Source: Patescibacteria group bacterium (lineage in GTDB: Bacteria > Patescibacteriota > Minisyncoccia > 2-02-FULL-40-12 > GWA2-44-9). Taken from it: 64,000 nucleotides of DNA. This document shows, in pieces, positions 2,419 to 61,250 of this stretch. Numbering within the stretch: the stretch's first letter is position 1; the number at the start of each line of letters is the position of its first letter. The notes under the pieces are model-generated. The model made no database searches, was not told the origin of the DNA, and worked only from the letters and a program-made list of their open reading frames with translations. A program made the position numbers and the translations under genes. The DNA is taken from contig JBBTSY010000004.1 in NCBI GenBank assembly GCA_038064515.1, positions 32,585-96,584 of the forward strand. Direction: 5' to 3'.

Positions 2419-2431
2419 AGCAAAAAGCGAC

Positions 2432-2632
2432 CTACATCTGCGACTTTGCCTTACTGCCCGTGGCGAGCATGTAGACAGCGCTCAAACCTACTAAGATGTA
2501 GACCACTCGGGCAATGGTTGAGCCACTACCGAAAATCGAGTCCACAAGGTTGTAGTCGAAGAAGCCGATGAGGCCCCAATTCAAACCGCCGACCACAACG
2601 AGAATCCAGGCCAGTATGCCTAAATTTTTCAT
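2432..2632 (-). CDS. DUF378-family small membrane protein
   Basis: 66 aa with two TM helices and the GLNWGLIG signature typical of DUF378. Confidence 0.65.
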   Translation of the reverse strand: MKNLGILAWILVVVGGLNWGLIGFFDYNLVDSIFGSGSTIARVVYILVGLSAVYMLATGSKAKSQM

Positions 2633-2827
2633 AGAATATGGCGAGTACTTATTTTAGTACCATCGACCTTTCCTCCTAATTGTATAAAACCTACAAAAAC
2701 AGTGCAAGAGGAGCGAAGGCGACGAGGTACTGCGGCCACCAGGCCGAATGTGCAAACGAGAAATGCACAGGCTTGTCGGCCGGCCCGCTTCACCAGAGCT
2801 TCAGTAAGGCGAGTAGTCAGGTATGGC

Positions 2828-3334
2828 TTAGCGCACGAGCGGAACCCAGTTGCCGATTGCAACACCCATAGCGATGGCCATGCCGCCAATTATGAGCATC
2901 CGCATGCCGCGTGAGAACCAGTGAATCCCGAAATTTCTGGCGCTAAATGCTCCGAGAAGGAAAAGGCTTACCAGAGAAATTACTACTGAAATACCTAACG
3001 GATTTGAGAAAAAAACGTAAGGGGCCAACGGAATTAAACCGGCCAGAATATACGACGCGAACATAATAAACCCGCCAACAATGGCATAATGCAGTGGGAT
3101 TTTCGAATTTCCCGTATATTCCTCCACCGAACGCTCCGAAAGGAAACTTCCGGCCGCCATCGAGAAACCTTCTACGGTGAGCAATACAATGCCGGTAACG
3201 AGAATCGCCGAGCGTTCAACGCCGGAGATGGCGATTCCCGAAAGAAGGCCGACCGTAGAAACCAGGCTGTCTTCCACGCCGAAAATAAGACTGCGAAGAT
3301 ATACCGCGATGCGTTCTCGTGATTGTGCTGGCAT
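2828..3334 (-). CDS. VIT1/CCC1-family iron/manganese transporter
   Basis: 168 aa. The VIT-family pattern EDSLVSTVGLLSGIA plus about 5 TM helices. Confidence 0.65.
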   Translation of the reverse strand: MPAQSRERIAVYLRSLIFGVEDSLVSTVGLLSGIAISGVERSAILVTGIVLLTVEGFSMAAGSFLSERSVEEYTGNSKIPLHYAIVGGFIMFASYILAGLIPLAPYVFFSNPLGISVVISLVSLFLLGAFSARNFGIHWFSRGMRMLIIGGMAIAMGVAIGNWVPLVR

Positions 3335-3479: not shown

Positions 3480-3551
3480 AGGTAGGAAGTATCGAGGTGA
3501 CCAAGGTGCCTCGGTTGGCTGCTACCCGCAGCTCTGCCGACAAATTATAAA

Positions 3552-4154
3552 ATGAGGTATCAATTTTTATCTGTAGATCTACAAAATGACTTTGCTTCTG
3601 AAGGTGGCAGTCATTATAAAATCCGACCTTCTATAAACTTCGATAAAGAAGTTCTGTTTCCGTTTCTAAAAGAAAAGGATATTAAAGTCAGCGAGATAAT
3701 TTCCGATTATCGACAACCAAGACCAGGAGATAGGGATGAGAGTTGTGTGCCTGGCACTTGGGGTTATGAATCCATCGTCCCAAAAGAGGTTGTAAAGTCT
3801 CAATGGGTAAAATGCATGAACTCACCGATTTGGACTAGAGACAATATAGGCGATCCAAACAAAATTGCTGGCTTGCCTTACCAAGATACAAAAGGATTTG
3901 GAGAATGGCTGGAAGAGAATATTGGTAAACCAGAAGAAGTAACACCTGTATTATTCGGTCTTACTATTGATTGTTGCGTACTAAGCACCCTTCAGGAGCT
4001 TAGCTGGCGGGGTTATTATCCCTTGGTCTTGAAAGAAGCCGTGGATCATTATCGAGGTACCGAAGAAGCCAAAGAAGCTGTCTTAAAAACACCTATCAAT
4101 AACTGGGCGGATGCAATCACTTGGGACGAACTGAAAGATAAATTGAATGGATAA
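3552..4154 (+). CDS. Isochorismatase-family cysteine hydrolase, paralog A
   Basis: FLSVDLQNDF N-terminal motif and the catalytic-Cys motif GLTIDCCVLST. 200 aa. About 85% aa identical to the ORF at 6623-7225. Confidence 0.75.
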   Translation: MRYQFLSVDLQNDFASEGGSHYKIRPSINFDKEVLFPFLKEKDIKVSEIISDYRQPRPGDRDESCVPGTWGYESIVPKEVVKSQWVKCMNSPIWTRDNIGDPNKIAGLPYQDTKGFGEWLEENIGKPEEVTPVLFGLTIDCCVLSTLQELSWRGYYPLVLKEAVDHYRGTEEAKEAVLKTPINNWADAITWDELKDKLNG

Positions 4155-6595: not shown

Positions 6596-6622
6596 TAGTG
6601 GGCAAGACGAAACAATAATTGT

Positions 6623-7225
6623 ATGAACTACCAATTTCTTTCAGTAGACCTACAAAATGATTTTGCTACTGAAGATGGTAAGCATTATAAAGTCCGACCC
6701 TCAATAAACTTTGATAAAGAAGTTCTTTTTCCGTTCCTCAAAGAAAAAAATATTAAGATTGGCGAGATAATTTCTGATTATCGCCAGCCTAGACCAGGAG
6801 ATAAAGATGAAAGTTGTGTCCCCGGAACATGGGGTTATGAATCAATCGTTCCGGAAGAGATTGTTAAATCTCAATGGATCAAATGCATGAATTCGCCGAT
6901 TTGGGTACGAGAAAATATCGGTGACCCAAATAAAACGGCAGGGTTGCCATATCAAGATACTAAAGCATTTGGGGAATGGCTGGATAAGAATTTAGGCAAA
7001 CCCGAAGAAATTACCCCAGTCCTTTTCGGCCTCACCATTGATTGCTGTGTGTTAAGCACACTCCAGGAGCTTAATTGGCGAGGATACTACCCGCTTGTAC
7101 TCAAAGAAGCAGTCGACCATTATCAGGGCACGGAAGAAGATAAGGAAGCAGTTTTGAAGACACCCGTTAATAATTGGGCGGAGGTAGTTGTTTGGGAAAA
7201 ATTGAAAAGTAAAATAAGGCAATAG
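6623..7225 (+). CDS. Isochorismatase-family cysteine hydrolase, paralog B
   Basis: Same motifs as paralog A. The DNA is about 80% identical with mostly synonymous differences, so both copies are intact and under selection. Confidence 0.75.
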   Translation: MNYQFLSVDLQNDFATEDGKHYKVRPSINFDKEVLFPFLKEKNIKIGEIISDYRQPRPGDKDESCVPGTWGYESIVPEEIVKSQWIKCMNSPIWVRENIGDPNKTAGLPYQDTKAFGEWLDKNLGKPEEITPVLFGLTIDCCVLSTLQELNWRGYYPLVLKEAVDHYQGTEEDKEAVLKTPVNNWAEVVVWEKLKSKIRQ

Positions 7226-10760: not shown

Positions 10761-11383
10761 GTGATGAAAAAGGCTTTCGTAGTAATCGTAATAGTTATTC
10801 TTACCGCGTTATTTTTCTGGTTTTTCGCCAAGAAGAGCGTAGCGCCAGAGCCACTAGAAACAGGCAAAAACTTTAGCCCGAGTCCGTCGGTAGGCGCGAT
10901 AACTAATGGTAATAAAGCTACCTGGGTTGCGCCCATTAGTAATGTCCGTGAGCGCATCACCAAAAAACCATTCGGTATTTTCGTGTCTCCTGCCGATTCA
11001 CCAGTCAGTCGGAAAAATTTACCGGTTATCATACCGGCGTTGATTTTGAAATATTTCCCGGTGAAGAAAATTCCTCTGTACCCGTGTATGCACTTTGTAG
11101 CGGCCCTTTACTTGAGAAAATTACGGCAAGCGGATATGGCGGCGTCGCTGTTCAAGAATACGAACTAAACAATCAACCGGTTACCGTAGTATACGGGCAC
11201 GTAAAACTTTCGAGCATTTCCATAAAATCCGGTCAGCAACTTAAAGCGGGCGACAAACTTGCCGTTTTGGGCGAGGGATTTAGCGCAGAAACCGGAGGAG
11301 AGCGAAAGCATTTACACATCGGCATACATAAAGGCGCTGGAAGGCGCTGGCGTGGATCTACGGGGATATGTGCAAAACCCTGA
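10761..11383 (+). pseudogene. Membrane-anchored M23 (LytM-type) peptidase, interrupted by a -1 frameshift in an A5 run at 11013-11017
   Basis: Frame 0 gives the TM anchor plus ...FGIFVSPADSPVSRK. The +2 frame continues ...FTGYHTGVDF...VVYGHV...GDKLAVLG...KHLHIGIHKG, a complete M23 core. Adding one A restores a single 207 aa ORF. Confidence 0.65.
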
Positions 11384-11429
11384 CACATTAACCGGCTGGA
11401 TAAACTTTGCCGACTATATACAATAGCGT

Positions 11430-11891
11430 ATGAAATGGAAGCATCCGCCAGTTATTAAAATTTACGAAGCTTTAGGCTCGGTTGCTGACGGCCGGGTAGA
11501 AGTTTCCGGCAATACCGCTAAAGTTTTTTCATCGAGCGGTAATAAATTCTACACTATTTCTTATGATCCGAAAAAACGAGCCATTATGGCCAATGATAAT
11601 GGCTCATATTGGAAGGGCTATCTCGGGTATCCATCTATTGCTTTTCTTCTTAAGATTGGCTTGCTTGAATTCCGTCCGGATTTAGCAAGTCTTCTGAAAG
11701 GAATCCGATGGAAAGACATAAATCAAAAATTTAAGAATGATTTTGGTAAGACGCTAGCATATATTGAGACATTTTTAGATACAGAATATAAGAAGAGTCT
11801 CGCGGATTATGTAAAAATTGTTGATAAGAAAATCAGCGCACTTAATCTTGGCCTACTTGGCACCAAAACTACTCCCCCAGGAGGTTACTAA
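11430..11891 (+). CDS. Hypothetical protein, 153 aa
   Basis: ORF with no motifs I recognise. Its stop overlaps the SD of murB. Confidence 0.4.
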   Translation: MKWKHPPVIKIYEALGSVADGRVEVSGNTAKVFSSSGNKFYTISYDPKKRAIMANDNGSYWKGYLGYPSIAFLLKIGLLEFRPDLASLLKGIRWKDINQKFKNDFGKTLAYIETFLDTEYKKSLADYVKIVDKKISALNLGLLGTKTTPPGGY

Positions 11892-11892
11892 T

Positions 11893-12924
11893 ATGAAAAT
11901 CGGGGAAAATATATTTTTAGCCCCCTACACCACGTTTAAGATTGGCGGAAAGGCTAAATTTTTTATCGAAGCAAAGCACATAGACGACGTAAAGGATGGA
12001 ATTAAATTCGCGGAACAAAAAGGCCTGCCCTTTTTTATTTTAGGTGGCGGAAGTAATATTTTAATCTCCGACAAAGGTTTTTGCGGTCTTGTCATTCGGG
12101 TCAGTATCCGGGGAATTCAACGTGACAAAAATATTCTTCAGATTGGCGCCGGCCACAACTGGGATAATGTTGTCGCATATGCTGTCCGCGAGAATCTCTC
12201 GGGCATTGAGAACCTCTCACTTATTCCTGGGACTATAGGAGGAGCTGTGTTCCAGAATATCGGAGCATACGGCGCCGAACTGTCGGATGTTATCACGTCC
12301 GTTGTTGCGTTAAATACGACAACTGGAAAAATAGAGAAGCTTTCACATAAAGAGTGCCGTTTCGGATATCGCAAGAGTATTTTCCAGGAGCATTCCGGCG
12401 AGCTGGTCATTCTAAAGGCGATAATAAGACTGTCTCCAAAATTTAAACCCAATCTTTCATATCATGATATTAAAGAATATTTCCACAATCGGGCCGTTAC
12501 TCTTAGCACGATAAGGAAAGCTGTCATCAGTATTCGTCGAGCGAAATTGCCGTATCCCGACACAATAGCCAATGCGGGATCATTTTTTAAAAATCCGATT
12601 ATTTCCAATGCCCGAGGCATAACGCTGATAAAAAAGCATCCTGAATTGAAACAAAAGAAGGCGAAAGGCGGCATCAAACTTTCCGCCGGGCAACTCATCG
12701 AACTTACAAAATGGAAGGGCCGGCGTATAGACAATGTCGGGGTATCCGATAAACACTCACTGGTATTGGTAAATTATAATAATGGTACGGCTGAAGAAAT
12801 TGTAAACCTTGCCCGCAAGATTCAGAATAGCGTACTTAGGCGATTTAGTGTTCGCCTCGAACCGGAAGTCGTAATCCTAAATTACAAACCTAGCCGGATA
12901 GCCACTGGAACTGTTATTTTTTAG
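11893..12924 (+). CDS. murB: UDP-N-acetylenolpyruvoylglucosamine reductase
   Basis: FAD-binding N-terminal domain (FKIGGKAKFF, ILGGGSNIL). AGGAGG SD 8 nt upstream of the ATG at 11893. Confidence 0.85.
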   Translation: MKIGENIFLAPYTTFKIGGKAKFFIEAKHIDDVKDGIKFAEQKGLPFFILGGGSNILISDKGFCGLVIRVSIRGIQRDKNILQIGAGHNWDNVVAYAVRENLSGIENLSLIPGTIGGAVFQNIGAYGAELSDVITSVVALNTTTGKIEKLSHKECRFGYRKSIFQEHSGELVILKAIIRLSPKFKPNLSYHDIKEYFHNRAVTLSTIRKAVISIRRAKLPYPDTIANAGSFFKNPIISNARGITLIKKHPELKQKKAKGGIKLSAGQLIELTKWKGRRIDNVGVSDKHSLVLVNYNNGTAEEIVNLARKIQNSVLRRFSVRLEPEVVILNYKPSRIATGTVIF

Positions 12925-40863: not shown

Positions 40864-41742
40864 TTATTGATTAAGGAGAAAGGTCTCCAAAGCGAGACGA
40901 TGATTGTATTGCGGTTGAGAAATAATATGTTTAAGTCTCAAAAGTCCCTTGATGGCACGATGCGCTTTTTCGTCATCGCGCAGATGCGCATGAGCCCATC
41001 GTAACCAGTAGTCTACGGCGTGAGCATATTCCTCTTTCTCGTAGAGTTTCTTGGCATATTGAAGCCGCTCCGCCACACCCTGGCTTGATACTTTTCGAAA
41101 ATCACGAATTGCCGTTCGAACATCATCAATTGATCCCGATTCGATCGTACGGATAGCCCAACCCAGCCTTCCATTTGCAATTTCAGTAACCAGCGCGCTC
41201 GTTTCATTATCTGCTTTCTTTGAGGCGAGCATTTTTTTAATAACCTCATCAGTATGCGGTAAAAATGGAACTTCCTGACATCGAGAAGTAATCGTAGGAA
41301 GCAGCTGTTTGGGCTGTGAGCTAATTAGAAGTAACGTGGAATAAGGCGGGGGTTCCTCTAAAACTTTCAACAGCGCATTAGATGCTTCAATCGTCAGGCG
41401 ATCGGCATCGTCAATAATCACGAACTTATAGGGGCCCGCCAGCGGTTTTCGAGATATAAAAAGATTCACTTCTCGAATATCGTCGATGTAAATTTTCGAC
41501 TCACCCTCATTCACTCGCGGCCCGATTACCAGCCGGTCTGCATCAAGTACCGATGCGGAATCAGGATTGGCTAAACGACAGAGTTCTTGGGCGAATTTTC
41601 TCTTGCCGATCATTTCCGGACCGGAGAAAAGATATGCGTGGAGAAACCGATCTTTTTTAAGAAGATTTTCGAAGTAGCTCTTTTGAAATTCGAATCCGAT
41701 CGTGTGCCAATCCATAGAACCCATCTCAATAATACTTTTCAT
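40864..41742 (-). CDS. holB: DNA polymerase III delta-prime subunit
   Basis: HAYLFSGPEMIGK and the SRCQ sensor. The first 9 codons (MKSIIEMGS) lie inside the MITE-like element. An alternative start is MDWH at 41713-41715. Confidence 0.7.
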   Translation of the reverse strand: MKSIIEMGSMDWHTIGFEFQKSYFENLLKKDRFLHAYLFSGPEMIGKRKFAQELCRLANPDSASVLDADRLVIGPRVNEGESKIYIDDIREVNLFISRKPLAGPYKFVIIDDADRLTIEASNALLKVLEEPPPYSTLLLISSQPKQLLPTITSRCQEVPFLPHTDEVIKKMLASKKADNETSALVTEIANGRLGWAIRTIESGSIDDVRTAIRDFRKVSSQGVAERLQYAKKLYEKEEYAHAVDYWLRWAHAHLRDDEKAHRAIKGLLRLKHIISQPQYNHRLALETFLLNQ

Positions 41743-41922
41743 GCCGAAATTTCAGGATTATGAGCGAAAAGAGTGAAGAGTGAGGAAGCAGAGTGGTACT
41801 CTGCTGACGAGATCTGATCTCTTTGCAGCCAGAATCCTGAAATACATTCAAGCTACTACCTGCAGTATTTCGTCGCCTTCGCTCCTCAATTGCAGGCGAA
41901 AGGGTGTTATTGAGATGGGTTC
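41716..41922. mobile_element. MITE-like palindromic element, copy 1 (207 bp), with 16 bp perfect TIRs AGAACCCATCTCAATAA / TTATTGAGATGGGTTC
   Basis: Near-identical to 60015-60174 except for a 47 bp internal insertion. It also carries nested internal inverted repeats (tttcaggatt/aatcctgaaa). Confidence 0.75.
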
Positions 41923-41928
41923 CACATA

Positions 41929-43062
41929 TTAATAAATACCAGAAAGCACGCGAGAAGCAATAGCATCAGCGGCACCTGGGGTAGCGAAGGTTTTAACTTT
42001 CTGACTTACATCGAGATACCGGGCTGGTTCAAGCAATGATTGGATTTGATTGATGAGAATGTGTGTCGTAATATTAGCTCCTTCCAAAATTGCCAAGCCT
42101 GCTTTGGCGAATTCGATGGCATTGGTTATTTGTTCACCGCGACTGGCTTGCTGTAGCGGAATAATAATGGCAGGCTTCCCTACTTGAGCAATTTCGAAAA
42201 GCGACGCCGCGCCAGACCGAGAAATTATAATATCGCAGGCGGCATAGGCCATTGCCATTTCTTTCACGTTCAAAAACGGATACAATCGATACCGCGATTC
42301 AATAAGGGAACCGTAACTCTCTTTCCCCTCCTTGATAAACGTATCAACAATTGCCCGAACACTCTCATATTGAGAATCGCCGCATTGATGGATAATCTGA
42401 TAATCTTTTACGAGCTCAACAAGTGAGTTTGCGATAATATCATTGATTACTTTTGCCCCTTGGCTGCCGCCGAGAATCAAAAGTGTTTTCGTATTCCCGG
42501 AAAAATTAAATGATTCGAGCGCGGCGCTGCGATCAGCGCCGAATAGATCCATTCGCACCGGATTCCCCACCAGCATCGCTTTCCCCGGAAAATATTTCTC
42601 GGCGGATTTAAAACTTATAAAAACAATGTTTACAAAGCGGGTGACGATCCGGTTTGCCAAGCCAGGGATGGAATCAGACTCATGCAGATATACGGGAATA
42701 AAAAATAATTTTGCGACTAATACGAGAGCTACTGAATCATAACCGCCTTTTGAGAAAACCACATCTGGCATAAACCAAAATAGATACCAAAGTGCCTGAA
42801 TAAAACCAATAGGTATTTTAATCAAATCTAGAAATAGCAATGGACTGGCATATCGTCGGAGTCCGCCAGCTATAATATGCTTAAATGCGAATCCGCCTTC
42901 TTGAGCTGCACGCTCAAGAAAACCGCGATTCGCACCAATAAGGAGTAGACGTACGTTAATATTTTTTTGTTGAGCGTGAGCTTGAAGAGATTTTGCCACA
43001 GCCAAGAGCGGGTAAACATGTCCTCCGCTAGCGCCACCAATAAGAAGTATTCGCTTTTCCAT
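41929..43062 (-). CDS. murG: UDP-GlcNAc:lipid I GlcNAc transferase
   Basis: GGTGGH N-terminal motif and the GT28 C-terminal domain. Confidence 0.85.
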   Translation of the reverse strand: MEKRILLIGGASGGHVYPLLAVAKSLQAHAQQKNINVRLLLIGANRGFLERAAQEGGFAFKHIIAGGLRRYASPLLFLDLIKIPIGFIQALWYLFWFMPDVVFSKGGYDSVALVLVAKLFFIPVYLHESDSIPGLANRIVTRFVNIVFISFKSAEKYFPGKAMLVGNPVRMDLFGADRSAALESFNFSGNTKTLLILGGSQGAKVINDIIANSLVELVKDYQIIHQCGDSQYESVRAIVDTFIKEGKESYGSLIESRYRLYPFLNVKEMAMAYAACDIIISRSGAASLFEIAQVGKPAIIIPLQQASRGEQITNAIEFAKAGLAILEGANITTHILINQIQSLLEPARYLDVSQKVKTFATPGAADAIASRVLSGIY

Positions 43063-59962: not shown

Positions 59963-59988
59963 ATGATATAGCTAGCAGTGAAATACAT

Positions 59989-60013
59989 AAAACCCCGCAA
60001 TCGGCGGGGTTTT
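59989..60013 (+). terminator. rpsT terminator
   Basis: aaaaCCCCGC-aatcg-GCGGGGtttt. Confidence 0.75.
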
Positions 60014-60014
60014 A

Positions 60015-60174
60015 AGAACCCATCTCAATAATGCTTTTCATGCCGAAATTTCAGGATTATGAGCGAAAAGAGTGAAGAGTGAGGAAGCAGAGTGGTACTC
60101 TGCTGACGAGATCTGATCTCTTTGCAGCCAGAATCCTGAAATTGCAGGCGAAAGGGTGTTATTGAGATGGGTTC
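60015..60174. mobile_element. MITE-like palindromic element, copy 2 (160 bp), with 17 bp TIRs
   Basis: About 99% identical to copy 1 apart from the 47 bp indel. Its right TIR overlaps the ftsW stop codon. Confidence 0.75.
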
Positions 60175-61250
60175 TAAGTATGCTTGGATATGTTCAATAT
60201 AATACCGATACCGCTCAAGAGCGCGAGCGTTGCGGTACCGCCATAGCTCACAAAAGGAAGCGGTAGACCGGTAAGAGGCCCCAGGCCGGTTACTGCGGCA
60301 ATATTAATAAACACTTGCACCACGATCCAAGTAGCGATTCCCATCACATAAAGCTTAGCGAATTTATCAGGCGCTTTTTTCGCAATCTGCGCCATGAAGA
60401 AAGCAAGTAATAAAAATAGGGATATAAGGACACCTGCCCCGATTAATCCTAATTCCTCCACAATTACGGCGAATATCGAATCTCCCACTGCTTCAGGCAG
60501 AAAACCGAACTTTTGAGTGCTCTTCCCGAAGCCGACGCCAAAAACTCCACCAGAACCGATCGCAATTAGGGACTGATTGAGTTGGTAAGAAATGCCTCGC
60601 GGGTCAAAAGAAGGATTCAAAAAAGTCTTCACGCGATTCAGTCGATAGGGCGCTAAGAAAATCAGTCCCCCACCGATGAGCAAACCGATAAGGATCATGA
60701 TAGCAAAGTCTTTCCAGCGCACTCCAGCCACCAGGTAAACTCCCAGCGCTATCGCGACAACAATAATAAGCGTTCCCAAATCCGGCTGGAGCATCAGTAA
60801 TAAGCCAATAAATCCAACTACCAGAAAGAATGGAATGATTCCATATGTCCAATTTTTTATCCTATCATTGCGCCCCCCAAACCAGGCGGCAAAATAAATG
60901 ACAAGGGCCAGTTTAATAAATTCCGCGGGCTGAAACGTTTGTCCGAAAACTTTGATCCAGCTCTGCGCATTATTGATTTTCAATCCCACTCCCGGAACAA
61001 ACACAAGAATCATGAAAGCCAAGGCTCCAAAGAGAATTGGCAAAGAAAATTTACGCCAATATTTATAGTCAATTTTTGACAAAATTACCATCACGAGGAG
61101 ACCGGGCACTACCGCAAATAAGAACTGGTGTTTTACGAAAAAATATGCGGAACCGAATTGCTTTCCCCCCTCGATAATCCCCGCTGAAGATAGCGCGACG
61201 AGCCCAAACGCTATCAGTGTAATGGTCGTCCAGAGTAGCTTCTTATCCAT
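60174..61250 (-). CDS. ftsW: SEDS-family peptidoglycan glycosyltransferase FtsW/RodA
   Basis: 10 TM SEDS pattern. It sits adjacent to mraY. Confidence 0.85.
   Translation of the reverse strand: MDKKLLWTTITLIAFGLVALSSAGIIEGGKQFGSAYFFVKHQFLFAVVPGLLVMVILSKIDYKYWRKFSLPILFGALAFMILVFVPGVGLKINNAQSWIKVFGQTFQPAEFIKLALVIYFAAWFGGRNDRIKNWTYGIIPFFLVVGFIGLLLMLQPDLGTLIIVVAIALGVYLVAGVRWKDFAIMILIGLLIGGGLIFLAPYRLNRVKTFLNPSFDPRGISYQLNQSLIAIGSGGVFGVGFGKSTQKFGFLPEAVGDSIFAVIVEELGLIGAGVLISLFLLLAFFMAQIAKKAPDKFAKLYVMGIATWIVVQVFINIAAVTGLGPLTGLPLPFVSYGGTATLALLSGIGIILNISKHT

Follow-up and report, generated by a model that had tools for sequence, protein, structure and literature searches.

Two inverted-repeat elements in the window

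In the stretch of 64,000 nucleotides from a Patescibacteria group bacterium near Yanofskybacteria that was analysed here (the window), a short sequence bounded by inverted repeats (copy 2) is located between rpsT on the plus strand and ftsW on the minus strand, and a longer sequence of the same kind (copy 1) is found between murG and a holB-like gene, both on the minus strand. The two sites contain the following features:

41715 to 41713, minus strand: native start ATG of the holB-like gene (MDWHT...), with in-frame ATGs at 41724 and 41742 inside the left repeat of copy 1
41717 to 41922: copy 1, 206 nt, between the murG stop (41929-41931, minus strand) and the start of the holB-like gene
41841 to 41887: segment of 47 nt present only in copy 1, with an AAT direct repeat on either side and a 44-nt core that contains the arm-B-type motif TCGTCGCCTTCGCTCCTC
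59988 to 60014: pre-existing bidirectional terminator hairpin of rpsT (plus strand) and ftsW (minus strand), which the element now parts from ftsW
60013 to 60015: left flank TAA of copy 2, which together with the TAA at 60175-60177 forms a 3-nt direct repeat
60016 to 60174: copy 2, 159 nt from repeat to repeat, a member of the one-arm class (nhmmer short-class profile, E = 6e-49)
60016 to 60034, plus strand: left terminal inverted repeat of copy 2, GAACCCATCTCAATAATGC, matching the terminus pattern of the family (GAACCCATCTCAATAAYRC) exactly
60156 to 60174, minus strand: right terminal inverted repeat of copy 2 (reverse complement GAACCCATCTCAATAACAC), whose final base is the G of the ftsW TAG stop
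60174 to 61250, minus strand: ftsW open reading frame, with its TAG stop at 60174-60176
60175 to 60177: right flank TAA of copy 2, whose TA (60175-60176) provides positions 1 and 2 of the ftsW stop codon on the minus strand

An earlier note had assigned copy 2 to positions 60015-60174 (160 bp). A 16-mer scan and an alignment confirm its presence at this location together with the claimed repeats, although latter delimit an element of 159 nt extending from 60016 to 60174, with position 60015 being a flanking A. Exactly four matches to the 16-mer GAACCCATCTCAATAA are present in the window (at 41717 and 60016 on the plus and at 41922 and 60174 on the minus strand), thereby defining two inward-facing pairs, and if up to three mismatches are allowed, six matches are obtained compared to 0.63 expected from shuffled sequences. 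Profile HMMs of the whole element and of its arms did not detect further diverged copies in the window. In a full-length alignment, the two copies are 99% identical and, as the earlier note had described, are separated by a single substitution (A/G at 41734/60033) and the 47-nt indel, while their flanks are unrelated.

Assemblers can create or collapse repeats, and in one pair of metagenomic loci (L044 and L075) only one flank of a common element is shared, which possibly reflects a chimeric join. Still, the view of the element as an artefact of assembly or duplication, a concern that the earlier note itself had raised, or as an integron attC-like site, is scarcely credible. The two copies differ in their flanks and lengths and are thus separate, and the element was recovered independently in another run and in many other assemblies. 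Further support is provided by an independent Logan contig (L001, run ERR3858120), which encodes an identical FtsW followed by the first 29 nt of the element, at which point the contig ends, its break inside the element being a consequence of assemblers stopping at repeats. Although attC sites are also imperfect palindromes found after stop codons, the neighbours of the described elements are core genes (rpsT, ftsW, murG, holB, mnmA and tRNAs) instead of cassettes, no integrase gene was found and no RYYYAAC/GTTRRRY core sites were seen in the element sequences.

Copy 2 is, as previously described, wedged between the rpsT terminator (59988-60014) and the ftsW stop codon. The right repeat had been assumed to give the last base before this stop, which requires correction since the C at 60174 is the third base of the stop itself: the TAG codon combines the flanking TA with the terminal G of the repeat. 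In an orthologous locus (L080), ftsW has its stop at the equivalent codon, with 88 nt separating this stop from the terminator. The closest relative (L079, FtsW 87% identical) instead carries a 209-aa open reading frame and folB between ftsW and rpsT (11080-12019), and the presence of extra genes where the window has the element characterizes the ftsW-rpsT junction as a hotspot of change in the lineage.

Copy 1 is found 6 nt past the murG stop and directly abuts the start of the holB-like gene, with the minus strand reading GGGTTC immediately followed by TATGGATTGG. In this case, the TA consists of the T preceding the native ATG and of its A, and the gene retains its own start. The two in-frame ATGs of the repeat result in a spurious N-terminal extension of the holB-like reading frame with the sequence MKSIIEMGS (window ORF region 41713-41742). 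Both this frame and the 9-aa mini-ORF on the reverse strand that the earlier note had pointed out, and which is present (ATGAAAAGCATTATTGAGATGGGTTCTTAA), are by-products of the repeat sequence. No open reading frame is conserved across the alignment of the elements, whose length of 46-291 nt is below the MITE limit of about 600 bp.

The predicted folding energy of copy 2 is -84.4 kcal/mol on the plus strand, compared to -40.8 ± 3.8 kcal/mol for shuffled sequences (z = -11.5), and -66.7 kcal/mol on the minus strand, whereas the value for copy 1 is -86 kcal/mol. Read-through transcription of the minus strand would include copy 1 in its intercistronic position between murG and holB and copy 2 in the 3' UTR of ftsW ahead of the terminator, and the perfect outer stem of 19-28 bp might in such transcripts act as RNase III-type substrate or as stability element. 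With the holB start codon being placed at the foot of the outer stem of copy 1, its translation would need processing or unwinding of the hairpin. A search for sigma-70-like sites within the element did not reveal a promoter beyond chance.

Further repeats are found elsewhere in the window. A stretch of 44 nt (2708-2751) shares 77% identity, including an exact core of 18 nt, with the reverse complement of the core of the extra segment in copy 1. It is flanked by a GTGCAA direct repeat (2702-2707 and 2750-2755), as compared to AAT in case of the copy 1 indel. Its motif GCAAGAGGAGCGAAGGCGACGAGG is similar to that found in arm A of the two-arm elements and in the Burkholderia family described below. 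The stretch is located in the leader of a small membrane-protein reading frame (about 2428-2633, minus strand), which by eye is DUF378-like. This stretch could represent the remnant of a further family member or a very small mobile unit. Finally, a direct repeat of 300 nt with 81% identity (3543-3842 and 6614-6913) corresponds to two paralogous reading frames of 200 aa (3552-4154 and 6623-7225), with three other genes in between.

Relatives, dispersal and insertion sites

An exact scan with the 19-nt terminus GAACCCATCTCAATAAYRC identified 13 loci in species-representative genomes (one per species) and 35 in metagenomes. The extraction of complete elements, for which a degenerate second end was allowed, resulted in 23 entries, 22 of them distinct (with L054 and L061 being the same locus). 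These complete relatives, at least 22 in number, were contributed by metagenomes of groundwater and sediment and by MAGs with the labels Burkholderiales and Desulfobacterales, and can be grouped into three size classes:

Minimal class, 46-50 nt: two repeats and a loop (L070, L074)
One-arm class, 120-170 nt (206 nt in copy 1): both window copies; L065, L066, L068; L032, L051, L062, L073
Two-arm class, 266-291 nt: L034, L044, L045, L047, L049, L054 (= L061), L058, L063, L067, L075, L076

The closest homologues of copy 2 in other metagenomes (L065, L066 and L068) share 75-82% of its sequence, and the interiors of two-arm members are between 66 and 88% identical to each other. The other end, which played no part in finding the elements, shows no mismatch in 16 positions in 13 elements and 1-4 mismatches in the others, equivalent to a conservation of about 94%, and the termini are thus far more conserved than the interior. 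By label, complete copies are found in two MAGs, one from Betaproteobacteria (Burkholderiales-type) and one from Desulfobacterales, and single ends in MAGs assigned to Nitrospira, Saccharibacteria, Bacteroidota and others, with the GC content of the host DNA ranging from 40 to 58%. In the databases searched, the family is rare and low-copy, unlike the bursts of classic MITEs.

Lone termini preceded by TA that lack a partner end were observed in MAGs labelled as Bacteroidota, Olavius symbiont, Nitrospira and Saccharibacteria (L043 ~3100-3190, L053 ~1-110, L042 7285-7303, L077 8565-8583, L036, L037 and L041), with a terminator-like hairpin immediately after the end in L043 and L053. Such lone ends may represent relics of half-elements. 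A viral origin was considered in view of 29 single 16-mer matches in IMG/VR and rejected, since one of the 29 is preceded by TA and none carries the YRC suffix, as found for chance matches.

The earlier proposal of a small, non-coding mobile insertion bounded by inverted repeats is borne out by 99% identical copies at unrelated sites, by absence in relatives and by a duplication of TA. In relatives whose FtsW is 87% and 76% identical, syntenic DNA of about 20 kb lacks the element. Among the metagenomic copies, L066 and L068 share 95.6% of their sequence and reside at different loci, L049 shares 94-96% identity with the element common to L044 and L075 and occupies another locus, and L062 contains two copies on a single contig of 3.9 kb. 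Multiple copies are found in the 64-kb window (two), on L062 (two) and as near-identical elements at separate loci within single samples. In case of L044 (1393-2898) and L075 (1-1506), the sequences share 99% identity along one flank, beginning at the outer edge of the element, and have nothing in common on the opposite side. This reflects either a recombination event involving dispersed copies or a chimeric join made at the repeat during assembly.

The target preference is manifested in the flanks. TA constitutes the two bases outside of the repeat at 29 of 46 family ends (63%) and is found at both ends of six of the 22 elements, and position -3 is a pyrimidine at 38 of the 46 ends, thus defining a YTAR target context with the flank consensus YTA/G, the slash marking the start of the repeat. 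At the remaining 37% of ends TA is not found; copy 1 contains it on one side only and an extra T is present in copy 2, L067 and L075. The TAA...TAA flanks of copy 2 may be read as a duplicated TA with one extra T, and its GGGTTC-T-TA arrangement also occurs in L067 and L075. A comparison of a filled with an empty site is provided by L034, from a Burkholderiales-type MAG, where the sequence ...CCTGATGCT TA is followed by the 266-bp element (GAACCC...GGGTTC) and by TA CAAAGCGCG..., and by L099, which encodes an MnmA of 91% identity and reads ...CCCAATGCC TA AAAAGCATG... without interruption. Both loci are collinear without gap if one TA is counted, which implies that exactly one TA was present before insertion and that 2 bp (TA) were duplicated at a CTAA site, with this duplication being defined by one filled/empty pair of orthologues of just 91% identity.

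The insertion of the element flush at gene termini without their disruption, which the earlier note had proposed for copy 2, is upheld and strengthened by the family, where 15 of 44 ends of complete elements are fused to the boundary of a reading frame. About nine of these 44 ends either complete a stop codon with bases of the repeat (TA/G or T/GA) or directly abut one, as in copy 2, and six place an ATG of the repeat in frame with a reading frame of at least 80 codons, as in copy 1. The outward-facing end of the repeat reads ...GAGATGGGTTC followed by TA, so that a copy entering a stop codon at its TA restores a TAG (TA + G). A copy that lands on a start codon or immediately within it could similarly bring an in-frame ATG. 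Both features are found in L034, where the element has inserted into the 8-nt overlap of an upstream reading frame and mnmA: the upstream frame ends at the orthologous residue, with TA + G forming TAG, and MnmA, as judged from the sequence, starts at the ATG of the repeat and reads MGSTKRVIVGMSGGVDS instead of MPKKHVIVGMSGGVDS in its relative L099. By regenerating a TAG or supplying an ATG, copies survive flush against genes in compact genomes. Conversely, the suggested targeting of terminators is not supported, as just copy 2 and L066 adjoin a terminator among the family copies checked. The common feature is instead a TA in YTAR context, which stop codons and gene junctions offer and where insertions are tolerated.

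The duplication of TA at a YTAR target is a signature of IS630/Tc1-mariner elements, which makes this class the best guess for the mobilizing enzyme. A DDE transposase of the IS630/Tc1-mariner kind would act in trans by binding the 19-nt ends and moving the element, and the identity of these ends in hosts of 40-58% GC, ranging from Patescibacteria to Burkholderiales-type MAGs, points to a transposase that is either broadly shared or moves horizontally. No transposase was found next to any terminus and no pair of termini was separated by more than 300 bp in the 48 loci, in an exact-match scan that differing ends would escape. Across 35 family loci, there was no recurrent protein family, no RAYT gene and no recurrent gene for a HUH, IS110-type or other recombinase, and neither collection scan revealed an autonomous IS with the same ends. 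An ISAzo13 transposase (confirmed by Pfam) that is located 200 nt from a terminus match in L046 was rejected as partner, because its IS ends about 45 nt past the stop codon (...ACACAGCTCC, as in L083) and the match resides inside a DUF6387 reading frame; this terminus match is a chance match in coding sequence. The same contig (L046, 1-2046) shows the ISAzo13-family IS, with its right end ...GTTATTTTTACACAGCTCC, inserted into the DUF6387 gene and next to a reading frame of 400 aa that by eye is P4-type integrase-like.

We consider it probable that copies 1 and 2 belong to a non-autonomous, MITE-type DNA transposon family that inserts at and duplicates TA.

Folded interior and a sister family in Burkholderia

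A consensus fold of ten elements obtained with RNAalifold shows the organization of the two-arm class, which consists of an outer stem of 28 bp, containing the repeats and their extension, of arm A, a CC(C)NNNN(G)GG mini-hairpin and arm B, which join without unpaired linker in a four-way junction. In this class, 92.7% of cells are paired compared to 78.9 ± 0.8% in shuffles and about 40% in slid controls, and 43 of 91 pairs change on both sides, compared to 26 ± 3 in shuffles. The middle of arm A contains the conserved purine motifs CAAGGAGCGACGACGAAG and CGAGGAGGAGCGACGC, whose complements are found in arm B. For the one-arm class, 17 of 63 predicted pairs are compensatory in a set of only four sequences. 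The interior evolves fast, yet it keeps a hairpin in the one-arm and a four-way junction in the two-arm class by compensatory substitutions.

In all five one-arm copies, the strand homologous to the plus strand of the window folds more stably, with a gain of 11-18 kcal/mol in four copies and of 6 kcal/mol in copy 1, whereas the two-arm class shows little bias. This gain stems from conserved G-U pairs beside the repeats (18 G-U compared to 0 A-C), a count that leans to G-U as the structure was predicted on that strand.

A very stable fold with covariation support and the location of copies in transcribed positions between or after genes would also be expected for a non-mobile structured RNA gene or a cis-regulatory RNA (such as an RNase III site, a stabiliser or an attenuator), in which the inverted ends serve as closing stem. 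We regard this interpretation as very improbable. It is largely refuted by the comparison of the filled with the empty site and its TA duplication, and near-identical copies are found at different sites of one genome while being absent from orthologous sites in relatives. Moreover, neighbouring genes are unrelated between loci, there is no Rfam match of weight and the closing stem is invariant and the interior variable, which is opposite to most RNA genes. The orientation relative to host transcription is not fixed, with four of five copies pointing one way, which is not decisive. On inspection, we have also rejected a hammerhead or other ribozyme, where CUGANGA- and GAAA-like motifs are present but their order and stems do not fit.

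A BLAST search of plasmid and chromid records with the L034 element identified unannotated multi-copy sequences in Burkholderia, Caballeronia and Paraburkholderia. These palindromic sister elements encompass 282-287 bp and are present in 1-10 copies per replicon (as in L088 421-707, L089 421-707, L095 451-735 and L096 451-732). They contain the same order of parts, with an outer stem, an arm with the purine motif, a CCC(C)...GGG(G) mini-hairpin and an arm with the pyrimidine motif, and their motifs can be aligned, most closely with L034 and L067. Conversely, their termini read AGGGTCTGTT.../...AACAGACCCT, as opposed to GAACCCATCTC... in the window family. The presence of the sister elements is polymorphic between species. 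In one comparison, a filled site in B. stagnalis matches empty sites in B. cenocepacia, B. arboris and B. multivorans, and in another a filled site in B. cenocepacia matches empty sites in B. arboris and B. stagnalis (GTC^GAT to GTC[AGGG...CCCT]GAA), in both cases with precise insertion and no target duplication. A search of annotated plasmids with the sister-family terminus for an IS partner has returned only the elements themselves, and the sister family showed no match in Rfam and no literature match by sequence.

The shared interior of a family that inserts without duplication argues against the described MITE model, as this would be odd if one enzyme class moves both. As an alternative, the element might depend on structure, with the junction interior, as single-stranded DNA or RNA, acting as substrate of a HUH/Y1 transposase, an IS110-type or another recombinase and the termini being exchangeable. 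Such a mechanism would be consistent with the interior and purine motifs (CAAGGAGCGACGA..., GAGGAGGAGCGACGC) that are common to the Burkholderia, Caballeronia and Paraburkholderia family despite its unrelated termini AGGGTCTGTT..., with the precise insertions of 282-287 bp without target duplication in both Burkholderia comparisons, and with a covariation that reflects selection on the fold beyond the terminal repeats. The strand bias in five of five one-arm copies, with its 18 G-U and no A-C pairs, points in the same direction, although the bias is small in the two-arm class and the asymmetry is confined to a stretch that is invariant among short-class copies and may be merely inherited. We nevertheless find a structure-dependent mechanism unlikely, since the window family duplicates TA and shows strong TA/YTAR flanks, as is characteristic for cut-and-paste transposition by DDE enzymes (IS630/Tc1), since no recurrent HUH, IS110-type or other recombinase gene is located near the copies, and since the terminal 19-mer, in contrast to the ends of REP or IS200/IS605 elements, does not form a hairpin of its own. 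Equally doubtful is a wider proposal where the junction interior would be the core of an unrecognised superfamily of selfish elements extending from Patescibacteria to Burkholderia, which was captured repeatedly by mobilisation systems or is recognised in its folded form. The observation behind both proposals, that one interior module is found with different ends and insertion signatures in the two families, is not fully accounted for by any explanation offered here.

Relation to known elements and significance

We have compared the MITE-type family, which remains our preferred interpretation, to known systems. In Rfam, neither the window nor 10 loci contained a match that reaches gathering score. 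The long-class and Burkholderia elements had no match with E ≤ 1, and the two window copies gave, at E ≤ 10, only weak matches far below the gathering scores of the respective families. Literature searches by terminus and motif strings and by topic did not reveal a description of the element or of a MITE in Patescibacteria. The family is thus apparently undescribed. Apart from the lack of a known partner, it largely agrees with how a MITE is operationally defined.

Its closest resemblance is to IS630-type MITEs and Correia elements. MITEs of the IS630/Tc1-mariner group include RUP of Streptococcus pneumoniae and Nezha of cyanobacteria. Like these, the described elements are small, non-coding and intergenic, with perfect terminal inverted repeats, a TA duplication at a YTAR-like target and a propensity to form hairpins, and they would be mobilised in trans. 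They differ in that no IS630-family partner with these ends is contained in the loci fetched, that their ends are identical across hosts labelled as different phyla, that some copies carry an extra T beside the TA and that the interior is not a decayed transposon but a covariation-supported hairpin or four-way junction with purine motifs. With the Correia elements of Neisseria (CREE/nemis), the family shares a size of about 100-160 bp, long and short variants with an internal indel (about 50 bp) between them, flanking TA, the adjacency to genes and, as predicted from its position, hairpins that would be co-transcribed. Correia ends begin with TATAGTGGATTAA... and are unrelated to the termini described here, and the window family, in which no sigma-70-like promoter was detected, also differs by its low copy number and its distribution beyond one genus. 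In mRNA, Correia hairpins are cut by RNase III at the terminal repeats, and processing of MITE hairpins by RNase III and RNase E has been described for Correia and ERIC, with ERIC hairpins altering mRNA decay (PMC10969869).

The ERIC/IRU elements of enterobacteria (about 127 bp) are similar as imperfect palindromes with longer forms generated by internal insertions, in which structure outweighs the sequence of the interior, and as repeats transcribed with neighbouring genes, which would apply to the window copies. They contain neither a defined TA duplication nor invariant 19-nt ends and are distinct in sequence and host range. Resemblance to REP/REPIN sequences (RAYT/HUH) concerns extragenic hairpins, often just past stop codons, with conserved ends and compensatory evolution of stems. 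REPINs may also insert without target duplication, as does the Burkholderia sister family. Unlike in REP/REPIN, the 19-mer is not palindromic, its head is YTAG and not GTAG, no RAYT gene is found and TA is duplicated. Compared to IS630-type MITEs and Correia elements, the family is distinguished by its invariant ends across phyla, its junction interior, the termini that complete stops or provide starts and the sister family with swapped ends.

By leaving both genes intact at a stop codon or at an overlap of stop and start, the repeat provides a concrete route for the persistence of selfish DNA in gene-dense genomes. Its sequence also poses hazards, for annotation due to false N-terminal extensions such as the MKSIIEMGS preceding the holB-like gene, and for assembly due to broken or chimeric contigs (as in L001 and in L044 compared to L075). 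The interior in common with a family of cultivable Burkholderia offers a tractable system to ask whether the hairpins serve RNA processing and stability or mobility.
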